From contig CANQED010000002.1 in assembly GCA_947594425.1 (NCBI GenBank), positions 62,364 to 126,363 on the forward strand: a DNA stretch of 64,000 nt, given 5' to 3'. Origin of the DNA: an uncultured Ruminiclostridium sp. (GTDB lineage: Bacteria; Bacillota; Clostridia; Oscillospirales; Ruminococcaceae). Below, piece after piece: positions 16,904 to 58,704 of the stretch. The translations under genes were made by a program, and so were the position numbers. Position 1 is the first letter of the stretch. Each line of letters opens with the position of its first letter. The notes under the pieces are model-generated. The model was not told where the DNA came from and ran no database searches. It saw only the letters and a program-made list of their open reading frames with translations.

Positions 16904-17006
16904 TTTTTTGGGTGGAAAAATCCTAAGGCGCTGCGCCTTTTAATTCGTTTAATACTGCGAAAAATAAACCGTGGACTGAAATCAATCCACGGTTTGCTGT
17001 ATTCAC
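16904..17006. repeat. Dispersed double-hairpin intergenic repeat, copy 1
   Basis: tttgggtggaaaaatcctaaggcgctgcgcctttt...actgcgaaaaataaaccgtggactgaaatcaatccacggtttgctgtattcac. Paralogous copies lie at 37197, 57067 and 58841. Confidence 0.75.
16958..16995 (-). terminator. Rho-independent terminator of the LRR-FN3 gene
   Basis: Minus strand reads AAACCGTGGA-TTGATTTCAG-TCCACGGTTT followed by ATTTTT. Confidence 0.75.
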
Positions 17007-17015
17007 TTTGATTTT

Positions 17016-19289
17016 TTACTTAGTCTTTACGGTTATCGTCTTGTATCCGCTGTAGAGCGCTGTCTTTCCGCTCATCTTGTATGTCTTTACGCGGAATGCG
17101 TAGGCGGTCTTTGACTTAAGCCCCGACTTTTTGAACTCAACGGTGGAGTTCTTGGATATCTTGCCCGCTCTCTTCCAAACGCCGTTGACTTTCATCTCTA
17201 CGATATACCCATCGGCGGAAGTGTTCTTATTCCACGTCAGGCGGACTGCATTCTTAGCGGAAGCTTTCAGCTTCAGCCCTGCCACGGCGGAGGGGTTAGT
17301 GCGTACCGATATAGTCTTAGTTGCGCCGTACAAAGCGGTCTTGCCCGACATCTTGTAGGCCTTAACGCGGAAGGTGTACGCGGTGCCGGCTTTGAGCTTG
17401 GACTTCTTGAATTCAACGGTGGAATTCTTGGTTATCTTGCCGACACGCGTCCAAGCGCTGCCGCTCTTCATCTCGATTATGTAGCCGTCGGCGGAGGTGT
17501 TCTTTGTCCATGTGAGGCGCAATGCGTCGGCCGCGCGAGCCTTGAGCTTCAAGCCGCTTATTGCGCTCGGGTTGGTGCGGGCGGATATTGTGGTATAGCC
17601 GCTGTAGAGGGCGGTCTTGCCGTTCATCTTGTACGCCTTAATGCGGAACGTGTAAGCCGTGCCCGCCTTGAGCTTCGATTTCTTAAACTCAATGGTGGAG
17701 TTTTTCGTTATCTTGCCGACGCGCGTCCAGCTGTTACCGCTCTTCATTTCTATTATGTAGCCGTCAGCGGATGGGTTCTTTGTCCAAGAGAGGCGCAGAG
17801 CGTCGGCGGCGCGGGCTTTGAGCTTAAGTCCGGTGACGGAGGAGGGGGCGGTGGGGTTGTAATTGTAGTGGATAGTGGCGCTCAGCAACTCTTCGTTAAC
17901 CTCATCAATAGAGATTTTATCCCATTGTGCTTTAGAGCCGGTGTAGTAGATGTCAGTAAACTTCCAACAACCATATAAGATGTTTTGTTGTATATTTGTC
18001 ACACTTTCCGGTATAGTTAGTGAAACAAGGCCTGTGCAATTAAAAAAGGCATTTGATTTTATACTCGTCACACTGTCTGGTATGGTTATCGAGATGAGGC
18101 TTGTGCATTCATTAAAAGCACAATCTCCTATACTCGTCACGCTGTCGGGTATTGTTACCGAGGTAAGGCTTGAGCAGCCGGAAAAAGCCCAATCTCCTAT
18201 ACTCGTCACACTGTCGGGTATATCTATTGATGTGAGACTTGAGCATTCTGTAAACGCACCACTGCCTATGCTCTTTACGCTGTTGGGTATTTTGATTGAA
18301 GTAAGACTTGAGCAATATGTAAAAGCTGAACCTCCTATATTTATCACAGTGTCGGGTATACTTATTGATTTCAGGTTTGAACATTCATAAAACGTATAAT
18401 CTGCTATCCCAAAAGTGCCATCTTTTATTATTGCGGTTGTTGCATCTTCATTACAGCCGATTACCCACTTTCCTGCATACCTTACATCAGATGATTGATT
18501 ATCAAAAAAAGGAGTATTTGTAAATGCGTATCTTCCAATACATGACACACTGTCAGGTATATTAATTGAGGCGAGACTTTCACAAGAATCAAAAGCTTCA
18601 TATCCTATAATTGTTACTTTGTCAGGTATTTTTATAGAAGAAAGGTTTGAACAATATTCAAAAGCGGCATCACCTATGAAAATCAGACTGTCAGGAATGA
18701 AAATAGAAGTAAGGTCGGCGCAATTCTCAAAAGCGCTATCTGCTATCCCTACAGTTCCATTTGCTATTGTTGCTGACGATGTATCTTCATCACAATCAAC
18801 CGCCCAATTTTCAACATACTTAACTGTAGTTGTCTGGCTGTCAAGAAGCGGCGTGTGCGTAAACGCATCAGAGCCAATATCTTCTACACTGTCGGGTATA
18901 TTTATTGAAATAAGGCTTGAGCAGTTATTAAAAGCTTTACCTGCAATACTTATCATGTTGTTCGATATGCTTACCGATGTAAGATTTGAACAATTCTCAA
19001 AAGCACCAGCTTCTATATACGTCACACTATCGGGAATATTTATTGACTTAAGTGATGAGCAATTGTAAAAAGCGCTCATCCCTATACTCGTCACACTTTT
19101 CCCGTCTAAAGTCGATGGTATGAGTAATTCTTCTGCGTTTCCCATATACCGGAATATTTTTACAGTCCCGTCGCCGAGCACGTTGTACATATAATCCCCG
19201 CTCGTTTCCGCTCCCGCGCAGACGGTTATCGCGCACACCGCGAGCAAAGCCGCCGCGAGGGATATGAGCCCCGCAAATAACTTCTTCAT
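17016..19289 (-). CDS. Secreted BspA-type leucine-rich-repeat protein with a C-terminal triple FN3 module (family member A)
   Basis: Signal peptide MKKLFAGLISLAAALLAVCAITVCAGA from ATG 19289 after GGAGG. There are about 23-aa LRR units (IPDSVTSIGxxAFxxCxSLTS) and three roughly 92-aa FN3-like units. The protein ends ITVKTK. Confidence 0.85.
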   Translation of the reverse strand: MKKLFAGLISLAAALLAVCAITVCAGAETSGDYMYNVLGDGTVKIFRYMGNAEELLIPSTLDGKSVTSIGMSAFYNCSSLKSINIPDSVTYIEAGAFENCSNLTSVSISNNMISIAGKAFNNCSSLISINIPDSVEDIGSDAFTHTPLLDSQTTTVKYVENWAVDCDEDTSSATIANGTVGIADSAFENCADLTSIFIPDSLIFIGDAAFEYCSNLSSIKIPDKVTIIGYEAFDSCESLASINIPDSVSCIGRYAFTNTPFFDNQSSDVRYAGKWVIGCNEDATTAIIKDGTFGIADYTFYECSNLKSISIPDTVINIGGSAFTYCSSLTSIKIPNSVKSIGSGAFTECSSLTSIDIPDSVTSIGDWAFSGCSSLTSVTIPDSVTSIGDCAFNECTSLISITIPDSVTSIKSNAFFNCTGLVSLTIPESVTNIQQNILYGCWKFTDIYYTGSKAQWDKISIDEVNEELLSATIHYNYNPTAPSSVTGLKLKARAADALRLSWTKNPSADGYIIEMKSGNSWTRVGKITKNSTIEFKKSKLKAGTAYTFRIKAYKMNGKTALYSGYTTISARTNPSAISGLKLKARAADALRLTWTKNTSADGYIIEMKSGSAWTRVGKITKNSTVEFKKSKLKAGTAYTFRVKAYKMSGKTALYGATKTISVRTNPSAVAGLKLKASAKNAVRLTWNKNTSADGYIVEMKVNGVWKRAGKISKNSTVEFKKSGLKSKTAYAFRVKTYKMSGKTALYSGYKTITVKTK

Positions 19290-19305
19290 TTTAAACCTCC
19301 TATAA

Positions 19306-19334
19306 TCAAAAAGTGCGCAGCCGAAGCCGCGCAC
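19306..19334 (-). terminator. Intrinsic-terminator-like hairpin inside the 5' leader of gene A (candidate attenuator)
   Basis: Minus strand reads GTGCGCGGC-TTCG-GCTGCGCAC followed by TTTTTGAT. It ends a few nt before the SD (19296-19300). Confidence 0.6.
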
Positions 19335-19359
19335 CGAAAAATGCAAAGCTCCGATTGCT

Positions 19360-19460
19360 GCGACACAACTTTCGTCCTCTACAAATTTGTACGAAAAGAG
19401 CCTGCACTTTTACCGTAAAGCAAAAGTGTATTTTGTAGAGGGAATATTAAGTTGTGTCGC
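19360..19460 (-). promoter_or_regulatory. Long composite stem-loop at the 5' end of the gene A leader
   Basis: GCGACACAACTT...CCTCTACAAA pairs with TTTGTAGAGG...AAGTTGTGTCGC. This encloses an inner hairpin CACTTTT/AAAAGTG. The structure starts about where the promoter's transcript should begin. Confidence 0.55.
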
Positions 19461-19466
19461 AATTTT

Positions 19467-19495
19467 ATTTTACCATACCAAGGAGTTGTTGTCAA
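19467..19495 (-). promoter_or_regulatory. Sigma-70-type promoter of gene A
   Basis: Minus strand reads TTGACA (19495-19490), 17 nt, TAAAAT (19472-19467). Confidence 0.6.
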
Positions 19496-19550
19496 TAATT
19501 TCTGCAAATTATTGACAATATATTTTATTCAAAAGGCTTGCTAAAGCACA

Positions 19551-19579
19551 AACCGTGGACTGAATTTCAATCCACGGTT
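19551..19579 (-). terminator. Family hairpin downstream of gene B (weak U-tract)
   Basis: AACCGTGGA-TTGAAATTCAG-TCCACGGTT followed by TGTGCTTT. This is the same hairpin found after genes A and C. Confidence 0.5.
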
Positions 19580-19600
19580 CGCTGTATTCACTTTGTTTTT

Positions 19601-22318
19601 TTACTTAGTCTTTACGGTTATCGTCGTATATCCGCTGTACAGCGCGGTCTTTCCGCTCATCTTATACGTCTTAACTCTGAACGAGTATGAGGTATTAGAC
19701 TTAAGCCCCGACTTCTTAAACTCCACGGTAGCATTGCTTGTTATCTTGCCTACCCGTACCCAAGAATTGCCGCTCTTCATTTCGATTATGTATCCGTCAG
19801 CACTTGTATTCTTAGTCCATGCGAGACGCACCGCGTCCTTAGCGGAAGCTTTGAGCTTTAAGCCCGATACCGCGCTCGGGTTGGTACATGCGGAGATGGC
19901 GGTGTACCCGCTGTAGAGCGCGGTCTTGCCGCTCATCTTGTAGGAGCGAATGCGAAAATCGTAAGCCGTGCCCGCTTTAAGCTTCTCGACGCGGTACTCG
20001 GTGGTTGAGTTATTAGCAAGCTTTGCTATACGTACCCACTTAGTGCCGTCCTTGCGCTCTATTATATAACCGTCGGCACTCGTGTTCTTTGTCCACGCGA
20101 GCCTTAGCGCGTCAGCTGCACGACCTTTCAGGTTTAAGCCTGTCACCACGGAGGGGTTAGTGCGTGCGGAAATCGAGGTGTACCCGCTGTAGAATGCGTC
20201 CTTGCCGACCATCTTGTAGGCTTTTATTCTGAATGAGTAAGCTGTGCCTGCCTTTAGTCCGGCTTTTCTAAACTCGACGGTGGAGTTTTTCGTTATCTTG
20301 CCAACGCGAACCCACTTGCTGCCGTCTTTCATCTCGATTATGTAGCCATCAGCGGTGGTATTCTTAGTCCAAGCTATGCGCAGAGCGTCGCTCGAGCGGC
20401 CTTTGAGCGCTAAGCCCGACACCGCAGGAACGGTTTTCTTAGCTATATAATTCTTATAGCTGTAGCCGCATACCGAGCAAGTGTACTCGGTATAGCCCTG
20501 CGTTGTGTAGGTCGGGGCGACCGTCTTGGTGGTATAAGTGTGCGCCTTCTTGGGGATGACCGCGGTCTCTTTATGGCCGCAGCCCTTGCAGGTAAGCTGC
20601 TTTTGCCCCTCCTTAGCGCAGGTAGGCTGTGTGATTATCTTTTCCTCAAAGTCGTGCGCTACTTTAATGGTAAACTTCTTTTCCACCGAAGGGTTATATA
20701 CGGGTCTGATGGTAATTGTCGCCGTTCCGGGCTTTAGCGCGGTCAGCATAAAGTCGAGCCCCGTGCCGCCTACGCGCAATACGCTCGCGTCCGAGGAGAA
20801 CGCCTCAAAAAGCTTATTTGCTCCGTCGGGCAACGCAAGATTGAAGTTCTGCCTGTCCTCTACGTCAAATGTAGTAGGAGCCTTTGTACTGTAGCTTGTG
20901 CCTGCGGCGGACGTGCCCGTCTCCCACCAAACGGTGAAATCGGTCGCTACCTTTTCGGTAAAGATCTGCGAGCATTTTTTGCACTTTAATGTCGCGGTGT
21001 CGCCCGATACGCTCTTCAGCTCGAGCTCGTGGCCGTATTTTAAGCTTGCGCTCTTTGCCGCCCTATAGCTCGAAAGGTCTATGGTGTAAAAATCCACCGT
21101 GGCGCTGTCCCAAACATACCACACAAGCTTGCCGCCGCTTACCACAGGCGCGCAGTCCGAAAGGTGCCCCGTAAAGCTGCTTATAGAGCCGACTTTATTG
21201 CCCTTACCGTCAATTCGGGTATAATAAACCGTATCGCCGCGCTCCCAGAGCACCATATAGCTGTCCGTGCTTAATCTTACGAGATGGGGAGTGGTCGCGC
21301 CGTCCTTATAGGCGCTGCCGCTGTATGAGGTAAGCTCAGTCACCTTGACCGCGCCCGTCGTCTTATCGGCGACGCTGACATATATATTTCTGGCGTCGCT
21401 GCTGCCGCTGAGATCTGTCTTGCTTCCGACAACGATATACGAGCTTGAGGATATTTCAAATCCGCCAACGGTAACTCCCGTATAATTATCCCCTACTTCT
21501 CCGGGGATAGACAGCATGGTTATCGTGCTGCACTGATTAGAGTAGGTGGGGGTAAATTTGCCGCCCGCCGCGCTTGTGGGGTACTTTATCAGCACCACGG
21601 ACCTCGGATATGCGTCGCCGTGGTCTACGGCTACTATCTTGCCGTTTTCGGTCTTGACAAACTGATTGAACGAGTGGCTGACATAACCGTATTTCACATT
21701 CATAACATCGGTGTAAGAATCGGTCACGGTCATACTGTCTGTATCATACTCTATCGTGACGTTGGCCTGATGGCCGCTGTACATCTCGTGGCAGGTGCGC
21801 ACTATGAGGTACTTGCCCTCCTCGGTGATACGCGCGCTGCCCGCGTCAAAGGGCACGGTGGTATTGCAGTTGTACAAGCCTACGGATCTTACCCTTGTCC
21901 AGTCCTTAGTGTATTTAGTAAGGCGATAGCACTCTACGTTGGCACTTTGACCGGGGTTAGTCTGTCCGGTCAAAAGATAATAGTTAGACGAGGTCTCATA
22001 AAACGCTCCGAATATCGGCAATTCCGCGCTGATAAGCTTTTGCGAGGTGCAATTGAAGTTCTTGTCAAAATACTCGACGAAAACCTCCTTGCCGGTCGCC
22101 TGCACCCTCATAAATGTGCCGTCCGACCTTGCCGACAGATACGAATTTACCGTACCCGACCAGTTGTGTCTGTATCCGGGATATTCCTGAGCGGATACAT
22201 TGCTGCCCGTATAATATGTACAGGGCGTTGTCGCGGCGGACGCCGCTATTGCCGCAGTACACATCGCGCCGACGGATATTATGACCGCCGCAGCCTTTTT
22301 AAGCAGTGAGATACTCAT
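19601..22318 (-). CDS. Secreted multidomain protein: beta-rich (propeller-like) N-domain, Big_2-like domain, Cys4 ribbons and a C-terminal triple FN3 module (family member B)
   Basis: Signal peptide MSISLLKKAAAVIISVGAMCTAAIAASA. The Big_2-like segment is LTALKPGTATITIRPV. CKGCGH...CSVCGY ribbons follow, then three FN3 units ending ITVKTK. The SD AAGGAGGAAG lies 19 nt after the mreB stop. Confidence 0.8.
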   Translation of the reverse strand: MSISLLKKAAAVIISVGAMCTAAIAASAATTPCTYYTGSNVSAQEYPGYRHNWSGTVNSYLSARSDGTFMRVQATGKEVFVEYFDKNFNCTSQKLISAELPIFGAFYETSSNYYLLTGQTNPGQSANVECYRLTKYTKDWTRVRSVGLYNCNTTVPFDAGSARITEEGKYLIVRTCHEMYSGHQANVTIEYDTDSMTVTDSYTDVMNVKYGYVSHSFNQFVKTENGKIVAVDHGDAYPRSVVLIKYPTSAAGGKFTPTYSNQCSTITMLSIPGEVGDNYTGVTVGGFEISSSSYIVVGSKTDLSGSSDARNIYVSVADKTTGAVKVTELTSYSGSAYKDGATTPHLVRLSTDSYMVLWERGDTVYYTRIDGKGNKVGSISSFTGHLSDCAPVVSGGKLVWYVWDSATVDFYTIDLSSYRAAKSASLKYGHELELKSVSGDTATLKCKKCSQIFTEKVATDFTVWWETGTSAAGTSYSTKAPTTFDVEDRQNFNLALPDGANKLFEAFSSDASVLRVGGTGLDFMLTALKPGTATITIRPVYNPSVEKKFTIKVAHDFEEKIITQPTCAKEGQKQLTCKGCGHKETAVIPKKAHTYTTKTVAPTYTTQGYTEYTCSVCGYSYKNYIAKKTVPAVSGLALKGRSSDALRIAWTKNTTADGYIIEMKDGSKWVRVGKITKNSTVEFRKAGLKAGTAYSFRIKAYKMVGKDAFYSGYTSISARTNPSVVTGLNLKGRAADALRLAWTKNTSADGYIIERKDGTKWVRIAKLANNSTTEYRVEKLKAGTAYDFRIRSYKMSGKTALYSGYTAISACTNPSAVSGLKLKASAKDAVRLAWTKNTSADGYIIEMKSGNSWVRVGKITSNATVEFKKSGLKSNTSYSFRVKTYKMSGKTALYSGYTTITVKTK

Positions 22319-37196: not shown

Positions 37197-37298
37197 CTTT
37201 TTTGTGGGGAAAGCCTAAGGCTCTGCGCCTTTTACTCCGTTATATATTGCGAAAAAATAACCGTGGACTGAATTTCAATCCACGGTTTGCTGTATTCA
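37197..37298. repeat. Dispersed double-hairpin intergenic repeat, copy 2
   Basis: cttttttgtggggaaagcctaaggctctgcgcctttt...attgcgaaaaaataaccgtggactgaatttcaatccacggtttgctgtattcac. Confidence 0.75.
37251..37288 (-). terminator. Rho-independent terminator of gene C
   Basis: Minus strand reads AACCGTGGA-TTGAAATTCAG-TCCACGGTT followed by ATTTTTTC. Confidence 0.75.
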
Positions 37299-37306
37299 CT
37301 TGTGCA

Positions 37307-39772
37307 TTATTTTGTCTTTACGGTTATCGTCTTTGTAGCACCATACAAAGCAGTCTTGCCCGACATCTTATACGCCTTAACTCTGAACGTATAAGAGGTC
37401 TTTGACTTAAGGCCCGACTTCTTAAATTCAACAGTAGAATTTTTCGTTATCTTGCCCGCACGCTTCCAAACGCCGCCCACTTTCATCTCAACGATATAAC
37501 CGTCAGCGGAAGTGTTCTTGCTCCACGCGAGCCTAACTGCGTTAGATACAGCGGCTTTAAGCCTAAGCCCGCTTATATTGCTCGGCTTAGTGCATGCGGA
37601 TATGGTCTTATAGCCGCTGTAGAGCGGAGTACTGCCGACCATATTATATGTACGGATGCGGAAATTGTAGGTGGTGCCTGCCTTAAGCTTAGCTATGCGG
37701 TACTCGGTGGTGGAGTTCTTAGTGATTTTTACCACGCGCACCCACTTGCTGCCGTCCTTGCGCTCGATTATGTAACCGTCGGCGCTGGTGTTCTTAGTCC
37801 ACGAAAGGCGGAGTGCGTCGCTTGAACGACCTTTAAGCTTTAAGCCGCTTACCGCGGAGGGATTGGTAGTCCACGAGCCCGATTTGTACGCGCTGTAAAC
37901 CGCCGTAGAGCCTACCATTTTATAAGACCTTACACGTATCGAATACTTAGTAGAGGGCTTTAGACCGTTGACGGTGTATGCGCTTGTGGCCTTGCTGGAT
38001 ATCTTTGCGGCTCTTGTCCACTTGCCGCCGACGTTCTTTTCTACTATGTAGCCGTCCGCGGTGTCGGTAGGCGTCCACTTAATGGTAAGCGTCGACGAGC
38101 CTCTGCTGCTGAGAGCTATTGCGGCCACGTCCACGGGCTTTTTATTGATTACAGTGACATTGCATACGGCGGTCTTGCCGCTGGTGGTCTTTGCTCTTAT
38201 GGCGGCAATGCCCTCTTTCTTAGCGTAGATTATGCCCGAGCGGCACTCGGCCACATCATTGTCGCCGCTGGTCCAGGTCACGCCGTCGTTTGAATTTGAG
38301 GGGGATACAGTCGCGTCGAGCACAAGCTCTTCGCCGACCTCCAAGATAGCGGAGGTCTTATTAAGCTTTATCGAGGTGGCAGGGACAGCGGTGCGAAGCG
38401 AGTATGATATGTTGTTATCCTTAGCGTATGCGAGCGCGTCAGAGCCGGGGAAGCAATACATGTGGACGTTGTTAGAGCCGTCAAACAATGTATTTGTATC
38501 CGGCATGGTCCCATAACCAAAATAAGCTGATGTAATATTACCGCAATCAGCAAAAGCAGCACTACCATCCCAATAATTTGAGCCCCAAGAATCAACAGTA
38601 CTCGGTATTGTTACGGATGTTAAACCGCTTTTTCTAAACGCCTGATATCCTATAAAATAAAGTCTTTTGCCAAGGTTTATTGATGTAAGCGAAGAACAAT
38701 TTCTAAAACAGCTTTCTCCTATTTCGAGAAGATCGCCCTTGACAGTAACCTTTGATAGTGCTTCGTCATCAAGGAAAGTGTCTGTATACAGATACTTTAC
38801 ATTAGCACCTAATGTTACATTTGTAAGACTTGGACAGTTACTTAATGCTCCATCACATACTGTTTCGGAATTAACAGTGGCTGTTGTCAACAGATCACAA
38901 TCACAGAAAGTGTTGCTTTCCAGTGTATTAGAATTAACTGTTACTGATGTAAGCTTATCGCAATCTCTAAAAGCGGAACTGCCTACCCAATAATTTAAAC
39001 CCCAAGTAGTAACAGAACTCGGTATTGTTACTGATTTTAATCCGCTATTTCGAAATGCTTGAGAACCAATATAAGTTAACTTGCTGCCAAATGCAAATGA
39101 AGCGAGCGAGGAACAGTTTTCAAAGCAGTTTTCTCCTATTTTGAGAAGACTGCCTTTAACAGTAACCTTTGATAATGCTGCGTCATTAATAAAAACTTCA
39201 TCATTCAGATTCTTTACTTTAGTACCTAATGTTACAGTTGCAAGACTTGCGCAATCTTTAAACGCGCCATTGTCTATTGTTTCAGAATTTACCGTGACGG
39301 TTGTCAACTTATCGCAATTGTTAAAAACGTTATCTGCCAAAAAATTAGAATTAACAGTTGCTGATGTAAGATTATCACAATCTTTGAATGTAGAACAACC
39401 GTTCCAATAATTTGAGCCCCACGTGGTAACAGTACTCGGTATAGTAATAGACTTTATATCAGTTCCGGCAAATGCCATGGAGCCGATATACTTTACCGTG
39501 CTCGGTATAACTACCGAATTAAAGCTGTCACTGTCTTGAAAAGCCGCTTCGCCTATACCGCTTACTGTTTTCCCCGCTATTTTAGAGGGTATAGTCAGCT
39601 TATCGGTAAATCCGGTATAGCCGGTAACATATACAGTGTTATCGTCCTGCACCTCATACTGCCAGTAGCCCGAGGTCAGCTCCTCAGCTCCCGCGCAGAC
39701 GCTTATCGCACCGACCGCAAGCAGTCCCGCCGCAAGGGATGTGATCCCCGCAAACAATTTCTTTAACTTCAT
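37307..39772 (-). CDS. Secreted LRR protein with a Big_2-like domain and a C-terminal triple FN3 module (family member C)
   Basis: The start is set at ATG 39772 (MKLKKLFAGITSLAAGLLAVGAISVCAGA) after GGAGGA. It has BspA-type LRRs and a Big_2-like segment (AILEVGEELVLDATVSPSN...). Three FN3 units end ITVKTK. Confidence 0.85.
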   Translation of the reverse strand: MKLKKLFAGITSLAAGLLAVGAISVCAGAEELTSGYWQYEVQDDNTVYVTGYTGFTDKLTIPSKIAGKTVSGIGEAAFQDSDSFNSVVIPSTVKYIGSMAFAGTDIKSITIPSTVTTWGSNYWNGCSTFKDCDNLTSATVNSNFLADNVFNNCDKLTTVTVNSETIDNGAFKDCASLATVTLGTKVKNLNDEVFINDAALSKVTVKGSLLKIGENCFENCSSLASFAFGSKLTYIGSQAFRNSGLKSVTIPSSVTTWGLNYWVGSSAFRDCDKLTSVTVNSNTLESNTFCDCDLLTTATVNSETVCDGALSNCPSLTNVTLGANVKYLYTDTFLDDEALSKVTVKGDLLEIGESCFRNCSSLTSINLGKRLYFIGYQAFRKSGLTSVTIPSTVDSWGSNYWDGSAAFADCGNITSAYFGYGTMPDTNTLFDGSNNVHMYCFPGSDALAYAKDNNISYSLRTAVPATSIKLNKTSAILEVGEELVLDATVSPSNSNDGVTWTSGDNDVAECRSGIIYAKKEGIAAIRAKTTSGKTAVCNVTVINKKPVDVAAIALSSRGSSTLTIKWTPTDTADGYIVEKNVGGKWTRAAKISSKATSAYTVNGLKPSTKYSIRVRSYKMVGSTAVYSAYKSGSWTTNPSAVSGLKLKGRSSDALRLSWTKNTSADGYIIERKDGSKWVRVVKITKNSTTEYRIAKLKAGTTYNFRIRTYNMVGSTPLYSGYKTISACTKPSNISGLRLKAAVSNAVRLAWSKNTSADGYIVEMKVGGVWKRAGKITKNSTVEFKKSGLKSKTSYTFRVKAYKMSGKTALYGATKTITVKTK

Positions 39773-39853
39773 GATTTTCCTCCGTTCTTCCATAATTTGG
39801 AAAATTTTCGCACGTGCGGCATTTACTGCCGCAACTGCTAATTGTACACTAAA

Positions 39854-39882
39854 ATAATAGCACAACTTACTTGAGTTGTCAA
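39854..39882 (-). promoter_or_regulatory. Sigma-70-type promoter of gene C
   Basis: Minus strand reads TTGACA (39882-39877), 17 nt, TATTAT (39859-39854). Confidence 0.6.
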
Positions 39883-39903
39883 TACTTATGCAAGGGAGGC
39901 TTT

Positions 39904-40065
39904 ATTTATTTTTTCGCTGAGGGGTGCGCCGAGGTGGTGTTTGTGGTCTGTATGCCCTCGATAGCGACCGTGTGCGGGCTTATACACGGGCGGAGGGCGG
40001 CAGGGGTGGTGCGGGTGGGAGACGTGTACCAAACAAAAGTTTAGCAAATGTGCGAAAAAATAAAT
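39904..40065. repeat. Perfect 14-bp inverted repeat enclosing a 134-nt G-rich block
   Basis: atttattttttcgc (39904-39917) is the exact reverse complement of gcgaaaaaataaat (40052-40065). The enclosed segment carries GGGCGGAGGGCGGCAGGGGTGGTGCGGGTGGG. Confidence 0.7.
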
Positions 40066-40617
40066 GAAACTTGCCTTGCTACGTGCAGCGATGCGGCGGT
40101 GTACATCTGTACTCATTTACCAGCCCGCAGAAGTGCGTAGATTGCCACGGGGTGCGCCGTTGAGACAGGTGCAGCAAGTGGCTGTATCCCCGCCGCTTGT
40201 ACTCCCCGCCGAGCCGCCTCCCTCAGCCTCACCCTGCCCGTTTTCCCGCTCCACAAGCGGGTTCAGCGCCGCCGAGCTTCGCCTCGTGCATAGCCCCGCC
40301 CAATGTCGCCGCACCCGTTCTTTTGCTTGCCGTCCCGCACTCCCTCACCCCGCCGCAGAGCAAAAATCACCCTCCCTCCCGTGCCGCAATTCCCCTACTC
40401 TAAAATGTCCTATAATGTGTGCGATATTTCTCGCAAATTGCGACTACTTATACAGACGTTAGTCGCACCTAACATTCCTACACGCACAGACATTCGCGAA
40501 TACATTTACAGAATTTCGCCCCGTTTTTCTACATATATATTCGCTCCGAAAGGCTCTAAAAATGTAATCGAATATATTTTAAGAAAGTTGAGCGTCATAT
40601 TTTTTGTACTATGCTTT

Positions 40618-40741
40618 AATATTCACTGTTTTCCTCGCCGCTCTCTACCTGTATGTTTCCATAAATGTCACTCTATGCGTGCGCAGATCGTATCATTTTT
40701 CCCACAAAAAACGCAAAGCCCAACATACCGTTGAGCTCAAC
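40618..40741. repeat. About 125-nt intergenic repeat, copy A (the partner is at 61918-62040)
   Basis: The two copies share ...ttcact.tttt.ctcgc.gct...aaatgtcactctatg.gtgcgcaga...ttttccca.aaaaa...aaagcccaacata.cgttgagct. By-eye identity is about three quarters. Confidence 0.7.
40705..40738 (-). terminator. Second terminator hairpin, part of the 125-nt repeat
   Basis: Minus strand reads GAGCTCAAC-GGTAT-GTTGGGCTT then TGCGTTTTTTG. Confidence 0.6.
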
Positions 40742-40742
40742 A

Positions 40743-40779
40743 TGCAAAAACCGTGGACTGAATTTCAATCCACGGTTCC
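40743..40779 (-). terminator. Rho-independent terminator at the end of the MoxR operon (family hairpin)
   Basis: Minus strand reads AACCGTGGA-TTGAAATTCAG-TCCACGGTT followed by TTTGC. Confidence 0.75.
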
Positions 40780-57066: not shown

Positions 57067-57150
57067 GGTGGAAAAGCCTAAGGCTCCGCGCGTTTTGCGG
57101 CGCTGTATAATGCAAAAAATAACCGTGGACTGAAATCAGCCCACGGTTAT
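57067..57150. repeat. Dispersed double-hairpin intergenic repeat, copy 3
   Basis: gggtggaaaagcctaaggctccgcgcgtttt...aatgcaaaaaataaccgtggactgaaatcagcccacggtta. Confidence 0.7.
57113..57150. terminator. Bidirectional terminator between the PP2C gene (+) and gene D (-)
   Basis: AAAAAA-TAACCGTGG-actgaaatcagc-CCACGGTTA-TTTGTGTTTATTT, with U-tracts available on both strands. Confidence 0.75.
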
Positions 57151-57201: not shown

Positions 57202-58704
57202 TCATCGTCTGCCCGTGCCGCCGCAGGTCTTGCAGCGTCCGCCGTTGCAATATTGACACGTCCTGCTTCCGTGGCAGCCTTGGCAGTCTACCCAGCCGCT
57301 GCCGCCCATACCGTAGGTAGGCACGCTCATTCCGCCTCTGCCGTGGCATACCTGGCAAAGGTTGGTGCCATGGCACATATTGCACAGTCCCGTGCCGCCG
57401 CATACTAAGCAGGTCTGTATCATCGGCAGACCCGAGCTTCCCGAACCGGAACCGCCGGAGCTGCCGCCGGAGCTGCCGGAACCCGAGCTGCCCGAACCGC
57501 TGCTCGTGGTGGGCTTTGTACCCTTTCCGTCACAAGCAAAGCACTTGCCGTCCTCACAGTACGGGCAAATGCCTGTGCCGCTGCAGTTGGGGCACAAAAG
57601 GAATGTCCCGTAAGACCATACTCCGCCTTCTCCGAAGCACACACTGCATTTGGCAGTGCCCGAGCATAAAGTACACTTTCCATCGCCCTTGCAGATAGTG
57701 CAAGTTTCGTAAACAGTGGTCGTTGAACTGCCGGTCGTGCTGCCGGTGACAGTCTTATACCCGCTGTACAGCGCGGTGCTGCCGCTCATCTTGTACGCCT
57801 TAACGCGGAACGAATATGACGTGCCCGCATTAAGCCCGGCTTTTCTAAATTCGACGGTGGAGTTCTTAGTTATCTTGCCTACTCTCGTCCAAGTGCTGCC
57901 GCTCTTCATTTCGATGATGTAGCCGTCGGCCGAGGTGTTCTTCGTCCACGCAATGCGCAGAGCGTTATTAGCCTTACCTTTGACCTTAAGTCCGCTTATC
58001 GCGCTCGGGTTAGTGCGCGCGGAAATGGTCGTGTACCCGCTGTAGAGCGCGGTGCTGCCGCTCATCTTGTACGCTTTAACGCGGAAAGAGTATGCGGTAC
58101 CGGCCTTAAGCCCCGCTTTTCTAAACTCGACGGTGGTATTTTTGGTTATCTTGCCTACGCGCACCCACTTGCTGCCGCTCTTCATCTCAACGATATAACC
58201 GTCGGCCGAGGTGTTCTTCGTCCACGCAATGCGCAGAGCGTCGGCCGCGCGTCCCTTTAGCTTAAGTCCGCTTATCGCGCTGGGGTTAGTGCGCGCGGAT
58301 ATGGTAGTGTACCCGCTGTACAGCGCGGTGCTGCCGCTCATCTTGTACGCTTTAACGCGGAAAGAGTACGCTGTACCGGCCTTAAGCCCCGTCTTTCTGA
58401 ACTCAACGGTGGTGTTTTTGGTTATCTTTCCTACTCTCGTCCAAGTGCTGCCACTCTTCATCTCGATTATGTAGCCGTCGGCCGAGGTGTTCTTGTTCCA
58501 CCCAATGCGCAGAGCGTTGACAGCACGGCCTTTAAGCTTTAAGCCGCTTACCGCCGTGGGCTTCGAGGTGGTCGCGATGGCCATTATCCCGCTGTTAGCC
58601 GCAGCTTTCGCGCCGCCGTCAAAGACTGTATCCGCCCCCGCGCCGACGCTGACTACACACATCACAACGGACATCAGCGCCGCGATTATCTTCTTAAATC
58701 GCAT
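57202..58704 (-). CDS. Secreted protein: N-terminal triple FN3 module followed by two Gly/Ser-linked blocks of six CxxC (DnaJ-like CxxCxGxG) motifs (family member D)
   Basis: Signal peptide MRFKKIIAALMSVVMCVVSVGAGA and three near-identical 92-aa FN3 units. CTICKGDGKCTLCSGTAKCSVCFGEGG...CPNCSGTGICPYCEDGKCFACDGKG follows, then a GS-linker. The protein ends CLVCGGTGLCNMCHGTNLCQVCHGRGG...CQGCHGSRTCQYCNGGRCKTCGGTG. Confidence 0.85.
   Translation of the reverse strand: MRFKKIIAALMSVVMCVVSVGAGADTVFDGGAKAAANSGIMAIATTSKPTAVSGLKLKGRAVNALRIGWNKNTSADGYIIEMKSGSTWTRVGKITKNTTVEFRKTGLKAGTAYSFRVKAYKMSGSTALYSGYTTISARTNPSAISGLKLKGRAADALRIAWTKNTSADGYIVEMKSGSKWVRVGKITKNTTVEFRKAGLKAGTAYSFRVKAYKMSGSTALYSGYTTISARTNPSAISGLKVKGKANNALRIAWTKNTSADGYIIEMKSGSTWTRVGKITKNSTVEFRKAGLNAGTSYSFRVKAYKMSGSTALYSGYKTVTGSTTGSSTTTVYETCTICKGDGKCTLCSGTAKCSVCFGEGGVWSYGTFLLCPNCSGTGICPYCEDGKCFACDGKGTKPTTSSGSGSSGSGSSGGSSGGSGSGSSGLPMIQTCLVCGGTGLCNMCHGTNLCQVCHGRGGMSVPTYGMGGSGWVDCQGCHGSRTCQYCNGGRCKTCGGTGRR
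57745..58572 (-). repeat. Three tandem 276-nt coding repeats (FN3 units) in gene D
   Basis: The string acccgctgta recurs at 57759, 58035 and 58311, an exact 276-nt period. Long near-identical flanks surround each occurrence. Confidence 0.85.

Follow-up and report, generated by a model that had tools for sequence, protein, structure and literature searches.

The stretch of DNA examined here (the window) is 64,000 nucleotides long and corresponds to positions 62364-126363 of contig C2 (CANQED010000002.1) in the 2.6-Mb assembly of an uncultured Ruminiclostridium sp. of the Ruminococcaceae (GCA_947594425.1, referred to as G000). Four open reading frames (ORFs) on the minus strand, genes A, B, C, and D, each encode a signal peptide and three consecutive fibronectin type III (FN3) units, and the subject of this report is how the proteins of this family are built and how they might be held at the cell surface. 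The coordinates of the genes and associated features are included in Table 1. An initial annotation made from the DNA alone had described four secreted genes with a triple FN3 module, and the ORFs together with the matches to the Pfam profile PF00041 place them where it did; sequence comparison likewise gives the repeat unit of about 92 residues that it had proposed (a period of 276 nucleotides or 92 amino acids). Three of the four proteins (A, B, and C) do end in ITVKTK directly before the stop codon with the triplet at the C-terminus. The stalk of D is not C-terminal, as the triplet directly follows the signal peptide and is itself followed by a 180-residue tail rich in CxxCxGxG motifs.

In a Pfam scan, PF00041 matched three stretches in each of A-D with 84-98 bits against a gathering cut-off of 25 (E 1e-24 to 3e-28). 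The units had been called nearly identical, which goes too far: the 12 units of A-D are 53-85% identical to one another in protein and 47-83% in DNA, and the divergent first unit of C (unit C1) is an outlier with protein identities of only 38-45%. The terminal units A3, B3, and C3 are nearest to each other (73-78%). The AlphaFold2 (AF2) model of the A triplet (pLDDT 97.4, pTM 0.84) consists of three tandem FN3 domains with ~7 strands per unit, so that the predicted structure is a seven-strand beta-sandwich repeated in tandem. Profile search and structure prediction of the triplet, both suggested with the initial annotation, agree on canonical FN3. Because the final beta-strand of the model is formed by LYSGYKTITVKT and the chain ends two residues later, ITVKTK is most simply read from the model as strand G of the last FN3 domain and not as an appended or universally conserved sorting motif; its counterpart in the internal units is TISARTNP. 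A Foldseek search with the A triplet gave a TM-score of 0.77 to fibronectin FN10-12 (6xay), and the heparin-binding segment FN12-14 (1fnh) was also among the matches. The closest structural neighbours of the rod are extended fibronectin fragments, at a sequence identity of only 14-26%.

The heads of the four proteins had been described as a BspA-type leucine-rich repeat (LRR) domain in A, an LRR domain with Big_2 in C, and a beta-propeller-like domain with Big_2 and cysteine ribbons in B. In the Pfam scan, LRR_5 (PF13306) matched the head of A with 362 bits (E 1e-109) and that of C with 223 bits, the latter together with Big_2, and LRR_5 had no match in B or D. The similarity of the LRR heads to NF047961 is weak (123 bits against an equivalog cut-off of 1250). 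The head of B has no Pfam or NCBIfam match, and its alignment-based AF2 model (pLDDT 87.9, pTM 0.86) is an all-beta propeller for which the best Foldseek matches are 7- and 8-bladed propellers with TM-scores of ~0.5. The CxxC ribbons of B can be read directly in its sequence. The heads of A and C and the ribbons of B are therefore as described, the propeller of B is predicted by the model, and Big_2 in B is suggested through a homologue only.

Several further observations concern these heads and tails. The B-head propeller (aa 30-470) has >6,000 homologues in Clostridia, in which it is combined with FN3, dockerin, SLH, Big_2, or LRR tails, and it constitutes a large uncharacterised surface-domain family. 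A cysteine-ribbon linker (...GKHTYxxKVVAPTYTAEGYTxHTCSVCGYSYKDTYT) is conserved just before the FN3 triplet in members with heads other than LRR; it lies at aa 560-625 of B and in the pre-stalk regions of C2_177, C2_188269, C6_24198, C7_95232, and C12_75495 of G000. The linker forms many repeats in the giant members and has no Pfam match in B. Secreted proteins in which zinc-finger repeats of the DnaJ-like CxxCxGxG type come after the FN3 array are D and those encoded at G000 C14:35667-38900 and at locus L007, the last of these in a rabbit-gut metagenome-assembled genome (MAG) that has kept the same architecture.

A hidden Markov model built from the 12 units was run on all six-frame ORFs of the assembly and identified 27 proteins in the genome that carry the FN3 module. 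Chance cannot account for the four-gene pattern in the window, and paralogy suffices to explain it, because 27 ORFs in a 2.6-Mb genome carry the module. The array lies no more than four residues from the stop codon in 24 of the 27 members, and 22 of the 27 end in ITV(K/R)(T/A)K. Sixteen of these 22 have LRR heads, preceded by a signal peptide that is conserved among them (MKKLFAGLISLAAALLAVCAITVCAGAE). Among the remaining heads are two GH5 enzymes, a papain-like peptidase, an HExxH-containing head, a transglutaminase-like domain combined with LRR, and giant cysteine-ribbon proteins. The rod consists of three FN3 domains and sometimes of four or five. Tandem pairs are common among the members, and in the window the family genes are interspersed with rpoB/rpoC, fusA, tuf, mreB, and the gene for the CCA-adding enzyme. 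The family loci do not form a mobile island, since they are scattered among core genes, many of them in tandem pairs.

A tree of 233 units groups the paralogues of a genome according to where each unit stands in the array and not by gene, and the triplet is therefore inherited as a block. The stalks of members with other heads are nested among those of LRR-headed members. Stalks from the two groups share a median identity of 71% (maximum 86%), no less than LRR-headed members share among themselves. The LRR heads are only ~40% identical to each other, compared with 68-70% for the stalks. These comparisons show that one stalk has been shuffled onto unrelated heads.

The initial annotation had seen no LPXTG, SLH, choline-binding, or C-terminal transmembrane segment, and this proved correct. 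None of the 27 members has an LPXTG or NPXTG motif followed by a hydrophobic segment and a basic tail, and none has a hydrophobic segment after the signal peptide (the maximum 19-residue hydropathy is <=1.53). A-D were scanned individually for wall-binding domains (of the other 23 members, 21 have the FN3 array at the C-terminus), and SLH, CWB1, CWB2, choline-binding, LysM, GW/SH3, WXL, SLAP, and dockerin domains had no match in them (Pfam E<0.01, NCBIfam). SLH and CWB2 are missing from the whole genome, and its single dockerin is in an unrelated protein of 2591 residues. Anchoring as a lipoprotein was considered and rejected by inspection, as each of the two Cys residues in the signal peptides (...AVCAITVCAGA|E) has Val at -1, so that there is no lipobox, and an AGA signal-peptidase-I site is present. 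On these grounds, the proteins can be described as a predicted variable-head, constant-stalk family that lacks a standard anchor.

The co-occurring sortase that had been proposed for a genome-wide search was found, in that three tandem sortase genes are located at G000 C21:16448-19409; family substrates for it were not, as none of the 27 members carries the NPxTG signal. About 15 large proteins of up to 5,645 residues end in NPxTG, a hydrophobic segment, and KKRKK, and none of these is a family member. The sorting motif in this genome is NPxTG rather than LPxTG. Because the sortases and their ~15 candidate substrates are present with no family member among them, covalent anchoring appears to exist in the organism and to serve a different set of proteins.

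The stalk matched >1,700 proteins that are named only "fibronectin type III domain-containing protein" or hypothetical and that come from MAGs labelled "Ruminococcaceae bacterium", "Eubacterium sp.", and "Ruminiclostridium sp.". All 79 loci from species-representative genomes belong to uncultured gut Oscillospiraceae or Ruminococcaceae, with >15 loci each in UBA11449 and UBA6413. The family has thus expanded along the lineage, and related uncultured Oscillospiraceae have dozens of members. Within the genus the distribution is patchy, the family being abundant in G009, G010, G011, G016, G017, and G023 and absent from many other genomes. The array is terminal in the relatives as well (in most of 91 ORFs from about ten other MAGs and in 77 of 77 arrays of a wider clade), and its last residues are specific to the species. 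The arrays end in SVSGKTAAK in UBA11449 and UBA6413, in ISGKTTK in HGM13344 and CAMEKZ, in VNGTTNK in RGIG4199 and SIG529, and in ...KIKK in the wider clade. A literature search on BspA-type proteins with FN3 in Ruminococcaceae returned nothing relevant.

ITVKTK had been put forward as a conserved sorting terminus to be looked for in related genomes, and this part of the proposal fails both in the AF2 model, where the peptide is a strand of the fold, and in the relatives, which end in other peptides. If the C-terminal FN3 domain were a signal by which a dedicated secretion or attachment enzyme sorts or processes the protein, like the signals of sortase substrates or the C-terminal domain of type IX secretion system cargo, this would account for a beta-sandwich that is always present at the C-terminus and for an end that is identical throughout the species. 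The variation of the end between species and its place within the fold speak against such a signal, as do the lack of a hydrophobic segment, the lack of a match to Por_Secre_tail (TIGR04183-type) or another sorting-signal model in the Pfam and NCBIfam scans of A-D, and the fact that the organism is a Firmicute. We give this explanation hardly any credence.

What is conserved is charge. The stalk has an isoelectric point (pI) of 9.6-10.6 across the 27 members (10.0-10.6 in all but two), and the net charge per triplet is +31 to +49 in all but one member (+21), with ~+14 for a single unit. The heads are mostly acidic, with a pI of 4.1-5.6 in 22 of 26 and near neutrality (7.1-7.7) in the other four. 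The mean charge is +10.3 per unit in the 91 ORFs from other MAGs and +19.5 per unit in the 77 C-terminal arrays of the wider clade. In the alignment of the 233 units, lysine or arginine makes up at least 60% of 11 columns per unit and only three columns are acidic, and these basic positions are kept across species at 40-60% overall identity. The charge also climbs toward the C-terminal unit (t3, +10.8; t2, +12.5; t1, +13.8). Non-covalent basic wall-binding modules are marked by repeats of strongly basic character at one end of the secreted protein that carries them, and the stalk has this property. A genome-wide scan for other highly basic 280-residue windows was confounded by spurious arginine-rich ORFs in the wrong frame and was not used.

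The charge also bears on the idea that the triplet docks on a cell-bound protein scaffold, such as a giant sortase-anchored protein, in the manner of cohesin and dockerin. The three position-specific subtypes of unit conserved among paralogues, the rigid rod of the model (pTM 0.84), and the ~15 large NPxTG-anchored proteins encoded in the genome would all suit a docking module of this kind. Charge, however, is better conserved across species than any sequence motif. Neither a candidate for the receptor nor a co-varying partner was identified, and the family genes are spread among housekeeping genes without a scaffold gene linked to them, which makes docking on a scaffold distinctly unlikely.

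The position of the rod in the protein was compared with what homologues of the heads carry there. Homologues of the B head at 48-52% identity have a C-terminal dockerin (P0130, P0139, and P0147) or SLH (P0154 and P0160), and others have C-terminal Listeria-Bacteroides repeats or cationic FN3. The GH5 head of the paralogue C1_282116 has a homologue, P0246, that is 56% identical and carries three C-terminal CWB2 repeats; other GH5-head homologues carry SLH (P0284, P0285, and P0288) or a dockerin (P0290). For two unrelated heads, therefore, predicted modules of known surface-attachment type occupy the slot of the FN3 rod in homologues. Genomes rich in the family have 0-3 SLH matches, with G000, G009, G016, G017, and G023 given as lacking SLH, and the family is absent from those genomes of the order that are rich in SLH, a complementary distribution that fits functional equivalence. 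The genome also contains two glycerophosphotransferase genes of the TagB/TagF family, which makes an anionic wall polymer plausible as the putative ligand of the rod.

The explanation that we favor, with a probability of about 45%, is that the rod is retained non-covalently and by charge on anionic glycopolymers of the wall and displays the head outward; both the ligand and the retention are inferred. The protein would be secreted through the Sec pathway as a modular molecule with an N-terminal signal peptide, a variable and usually acidic head, and a constant rigid FN3 rod at the C-terminus. After secretion the rod would stick, largely by charge, to the anionic glycopolymers of the cell's own wall, which may be of teichoic-acid type or another acidic wall polysaccharide, and its retention there would leave the head facing outward. 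The rod would in this way take on the role that other Firmicutes assign to SLH, CWB2, dockerin, or sortase anchoring. Indirect support for surface retention comes from the conservation of the polycationic charge, from the replacement of the rod by dockerin, SLH, or CWB2 in homologues of two heads, and from the fact that the family does not use the sortase system of the genome.

The same polycationic charge would be just as well suited to binding anionic targets outside the cell. In that event the proteins would be released or would act as bridges, and the targets envisaged are sulfated or sialylated mucin glycans, pectin, extracellular DNA, and the surfaces of other bacteria. The resemblance of the fold to the heparin-binding FN12-14 of fibronectin, the gut habitat of the organisms, and the weak likeness of the LRR heads to streptococcal LRR adhesins all agree with external binding. 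A stalk that is common to heads with unrelated jobs (GH5, peptidase, and LRR) fits a shared localisation better, however, and the homologues fill the slot with modules that bind their own surface (SLH, CWB2, and dockerin). We regard this reading as unlikely.

The equal aptness of the rod for external targets is one of several points that weigh against retention on the wall. FN3 domains usually act as spacers and commonly link domains in bacterial hydrolases. Many GH5-head homologues have no extra module at all, and the slot need not be that of an anchor. These points, together with a terminal peptide that differs between species, would suit a triplet that is a mere spacer or solubility module of freely secreted proteins, its basic charge being a quirk of the lineage. 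A spacer at the extreme C-terminus connects nothing, however, and the conserved basic positions and the conservation of the stalk above that of the heads also argue against a spacer, which we consider improbable. Also to be set against wall retention, the array is internal in three members (D, C5_144737, and C14), the complementary distribution of FN3 and SLH is confounded by phylogeny and many genomes of the genus have neither module, and all relatives found are uncultured MAGs. Finally, FN3 is missing from the recognised wall-binding domains of Gram-positive bacteria (PMC5817068).

In its wider form, the proposal of wall retention would make polycationic C-terminal FN3 arrays an unrecognised class of non-covalent envelope anchor across a broad clade of uncultured gut Oscillospirales. 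Such arrays would replace SLH, CWB2, dockerin, and sortase anchoring for the products of ~1% of the genes, and seven of the members in the present species would also lie behind a possible phase-variation element. We put this forward tentatively. The proposal bears on how the abundant uncultured gut Clostridia display adhesins and enzymes at their surface; in many of these organisms, the majority of the secreted proteins have no textbook anchor. If the cationic rod is the anchor, a new domain type would join the wall-binding modules of Gram-positive bacteria, and the build of thousands of hypothetical proteins catalogued as "FN3 domain-containing" would be explained. The rod would also be an easy marker by which to predict the surface proteome of these organisms and might serve for surface display.

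Table 1. Positions of the family genes and of associated features in the window, with copies of the 1-kb repeat elsewhere in the assembly
Feature	Position	Strand	Remarks
Gene A	17016..19289	(-)	signal peptide; BspA-type LRR head aa 28-477; FN3 triplet aa 478-757 (nt 17019-17858); end TITVKTK-stop
Gene B	19601..22318	(-)	signal peptide; predicted beta-propeller head aa 30-470 (nt 20909-22231); FN3 triplet (nt 19604-20443); end TITVKTK-stop
Gene B, between propeller and triplet	nt 20444-20908	(-)	Big_2-like region and CxxC ribbons
Gene C	37307..39772	(-)	signal peptide; LRR head; Big_2; FN3 triplet (nt 37310-38149); end TITVKTK-stop
Gene D	57202..58704	(-)	signal peptide; FN3 triplet (nt 57745-58572); Cys-rich CxxCxGxG tail (nt 57205-57744)
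3' element of A	16904..17015	(-)	terminator hairpin AACCGTGG..CCACGGTT and T-run 16966-16995; second small hairpin 16925-16939; terminator repeat 16904-17006
Terminator hairpin after B	19551..19579	(-)	hairpin-only copy of the 3' element
3' double-hairpin element after C	37197..37298	(-)	
3' double-hairpin element after D	57067..57150	(-)	same element despite unrelated C-terminus
Terminator repeat copy	40749-40777		
Non-coding repeat of ~1 kb upstream of C	39773..40760	(-)	one of 7 genome copies
Promoter in the repeat upstream of C	-35 at 39877-39882; -10 at 39854-39859		
28-bp inverted-repeat arms	40052-40079 and 39888-39917		flank ~135 bp; just upstream of -35
Other copies of the 1-kb repeat	G000 C21:24949-25873, C5:157918-158841, C1:285246-286167, C12:74646-75570, C2:16138-17045, C8:2191-3043		

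The initial annotation had also noted that conservation continues past the stop codon into a 3' hairpin, and it had taken this to imply cassette-like duplication or gene conversion. The continued conservation is real. The 3' element is a 12-bp hairpin (AACCGTGG...CCACGGTT) followed by a T-run, which together form a canonical intrinsic terminator, and in most copies a second small hairpin (AAGGCGCAGCGCCTT) lies downstream of it. The stem is invariant in 16 copies with a compensatory change in only one pair, and the repeat is conserved by sequence rather than by covariation. About 17 sites were found genome-wide, mostly after family genes and also after at least three unrelated genes. The hairpin is a dispersed terminator repeat and does not mark ITVKTK ends, as it also follows D and several unrelated genes. 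In the window, Rfam at the gathering threshold detected only four tRNAs, and the 3' double hairpin was unmatched.

The two routes by which the 3' ends might have spread fared differently. Cassette-like duplication holds, in that stalk and terminator are joined to unrelated heads. Recent gene conversion was rejected, as no pair of stalks exceeds 82% identity in DNA. Because DNA identity among the 22 stalks is only 60-82%, with a median of 70% and without long near-identical tracts, old duplications and domain shuffling appear to have built the family, with the stalk and its terminator as an old heritable cassette.

The repeat upstream of C occurs in seven copies, each upstream of a gene of the LRR-FN3 family. 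The copies are 78-96% identical in DNA, above the coding stalks, and contain no consistent ORF. The repeat ends in a strong promoter (TTGACAAC, a 17-nt spacer, and TGnTATTAT). It was found in 0 of 60 other genomes of the genus, and so is specific to the species, and had no Rfam match at the gathering threshold. A metagenome scan with the pattern of the inverted-repeat arms returned 47 loci, all of them chance matches without similarity beyond the pattern. Possible roles for the repeat are those of a switch for phase variation and of a regulatory platform. A partial copy at G000 C2:193520-193760, upstream of a secreted protein that is not a family member, keeps the arms and the promoter around an unrelated, C-rich interior; because of this copy, the arms appear to be more conserved than the segment that they enclose.

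A search for a promoter motif specific to the family returned mostly generic strong sigma-70 promoters with an extended -10, and no regulon is claimed. Gene A and the paralogue C5_144737 have a common upstream leader (19290-19466 for A) that is 80% identical over 255 nt. The leader ends in a GC-rich hairpin and a T-run just before the ribosome-binding site. This places a terminator inside the leader, which suggests attenuation or antitermination control of the two genes.

The closest functional parallel is found in Ruminococcus albus, in which a C-terminal CBM37 attaches many enzymes to cell-wall carbohydrate while the R. flavefaciens orthologues use dockerins (PMC4081043). Like CBM37, the FN3 stalk is a lineage-restricted C-terminal module, often in tandem, that is common to dozens of secreted proteins with different heads, that stands where relatives have dockerins, and that comes with no covalent anchor (PMC4081043). 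The two modules are unrelated in fold and sequence, and the comparison is functional only. Wall binding has been demonstrated for CBM37 and is only inferred for the FN3 stalk, and the heads here are mostly LRR domains rather than carbohydrate-active enzymes.

Three further groups of proteins resemble the family in part. The fold, the canonical FN3 profile, and the extended three-domain arrangement are those of eukaryotic FN3 rods (fibronectin FN10-12 and FN12-14, titin), and the heparin-binding segment 1fnh is a precedent for a cationic FN3 surface that binds a polyanion. The bacterial stalk differs from these rods in its secreted context and in that every unit, not just one, is strongly cationic. 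In the LRR_5 arrays of A, C, and about 16 paralogues the heads resemble BspA-type LRR surface proteins (PF13306), among them streptococcal LrrG/HupY. The streptococcal proteins carry an LPXTG anchor, which the family described here lacks. The wall-binding domains of Lactobacillus S-layer proteins (SLAP) and the GW modules of Listeria have a very high pI and form terminal tandem repeats, and teichoic or lipoteichoic acids are regarded as their ligands. The FN3 stalk has no sequence or fold relationship to these regions, with no SLAP or GW match in A-D, and it shares with them the very high pI and the tandem arrangement of its repeats at an end of the secreted protein.

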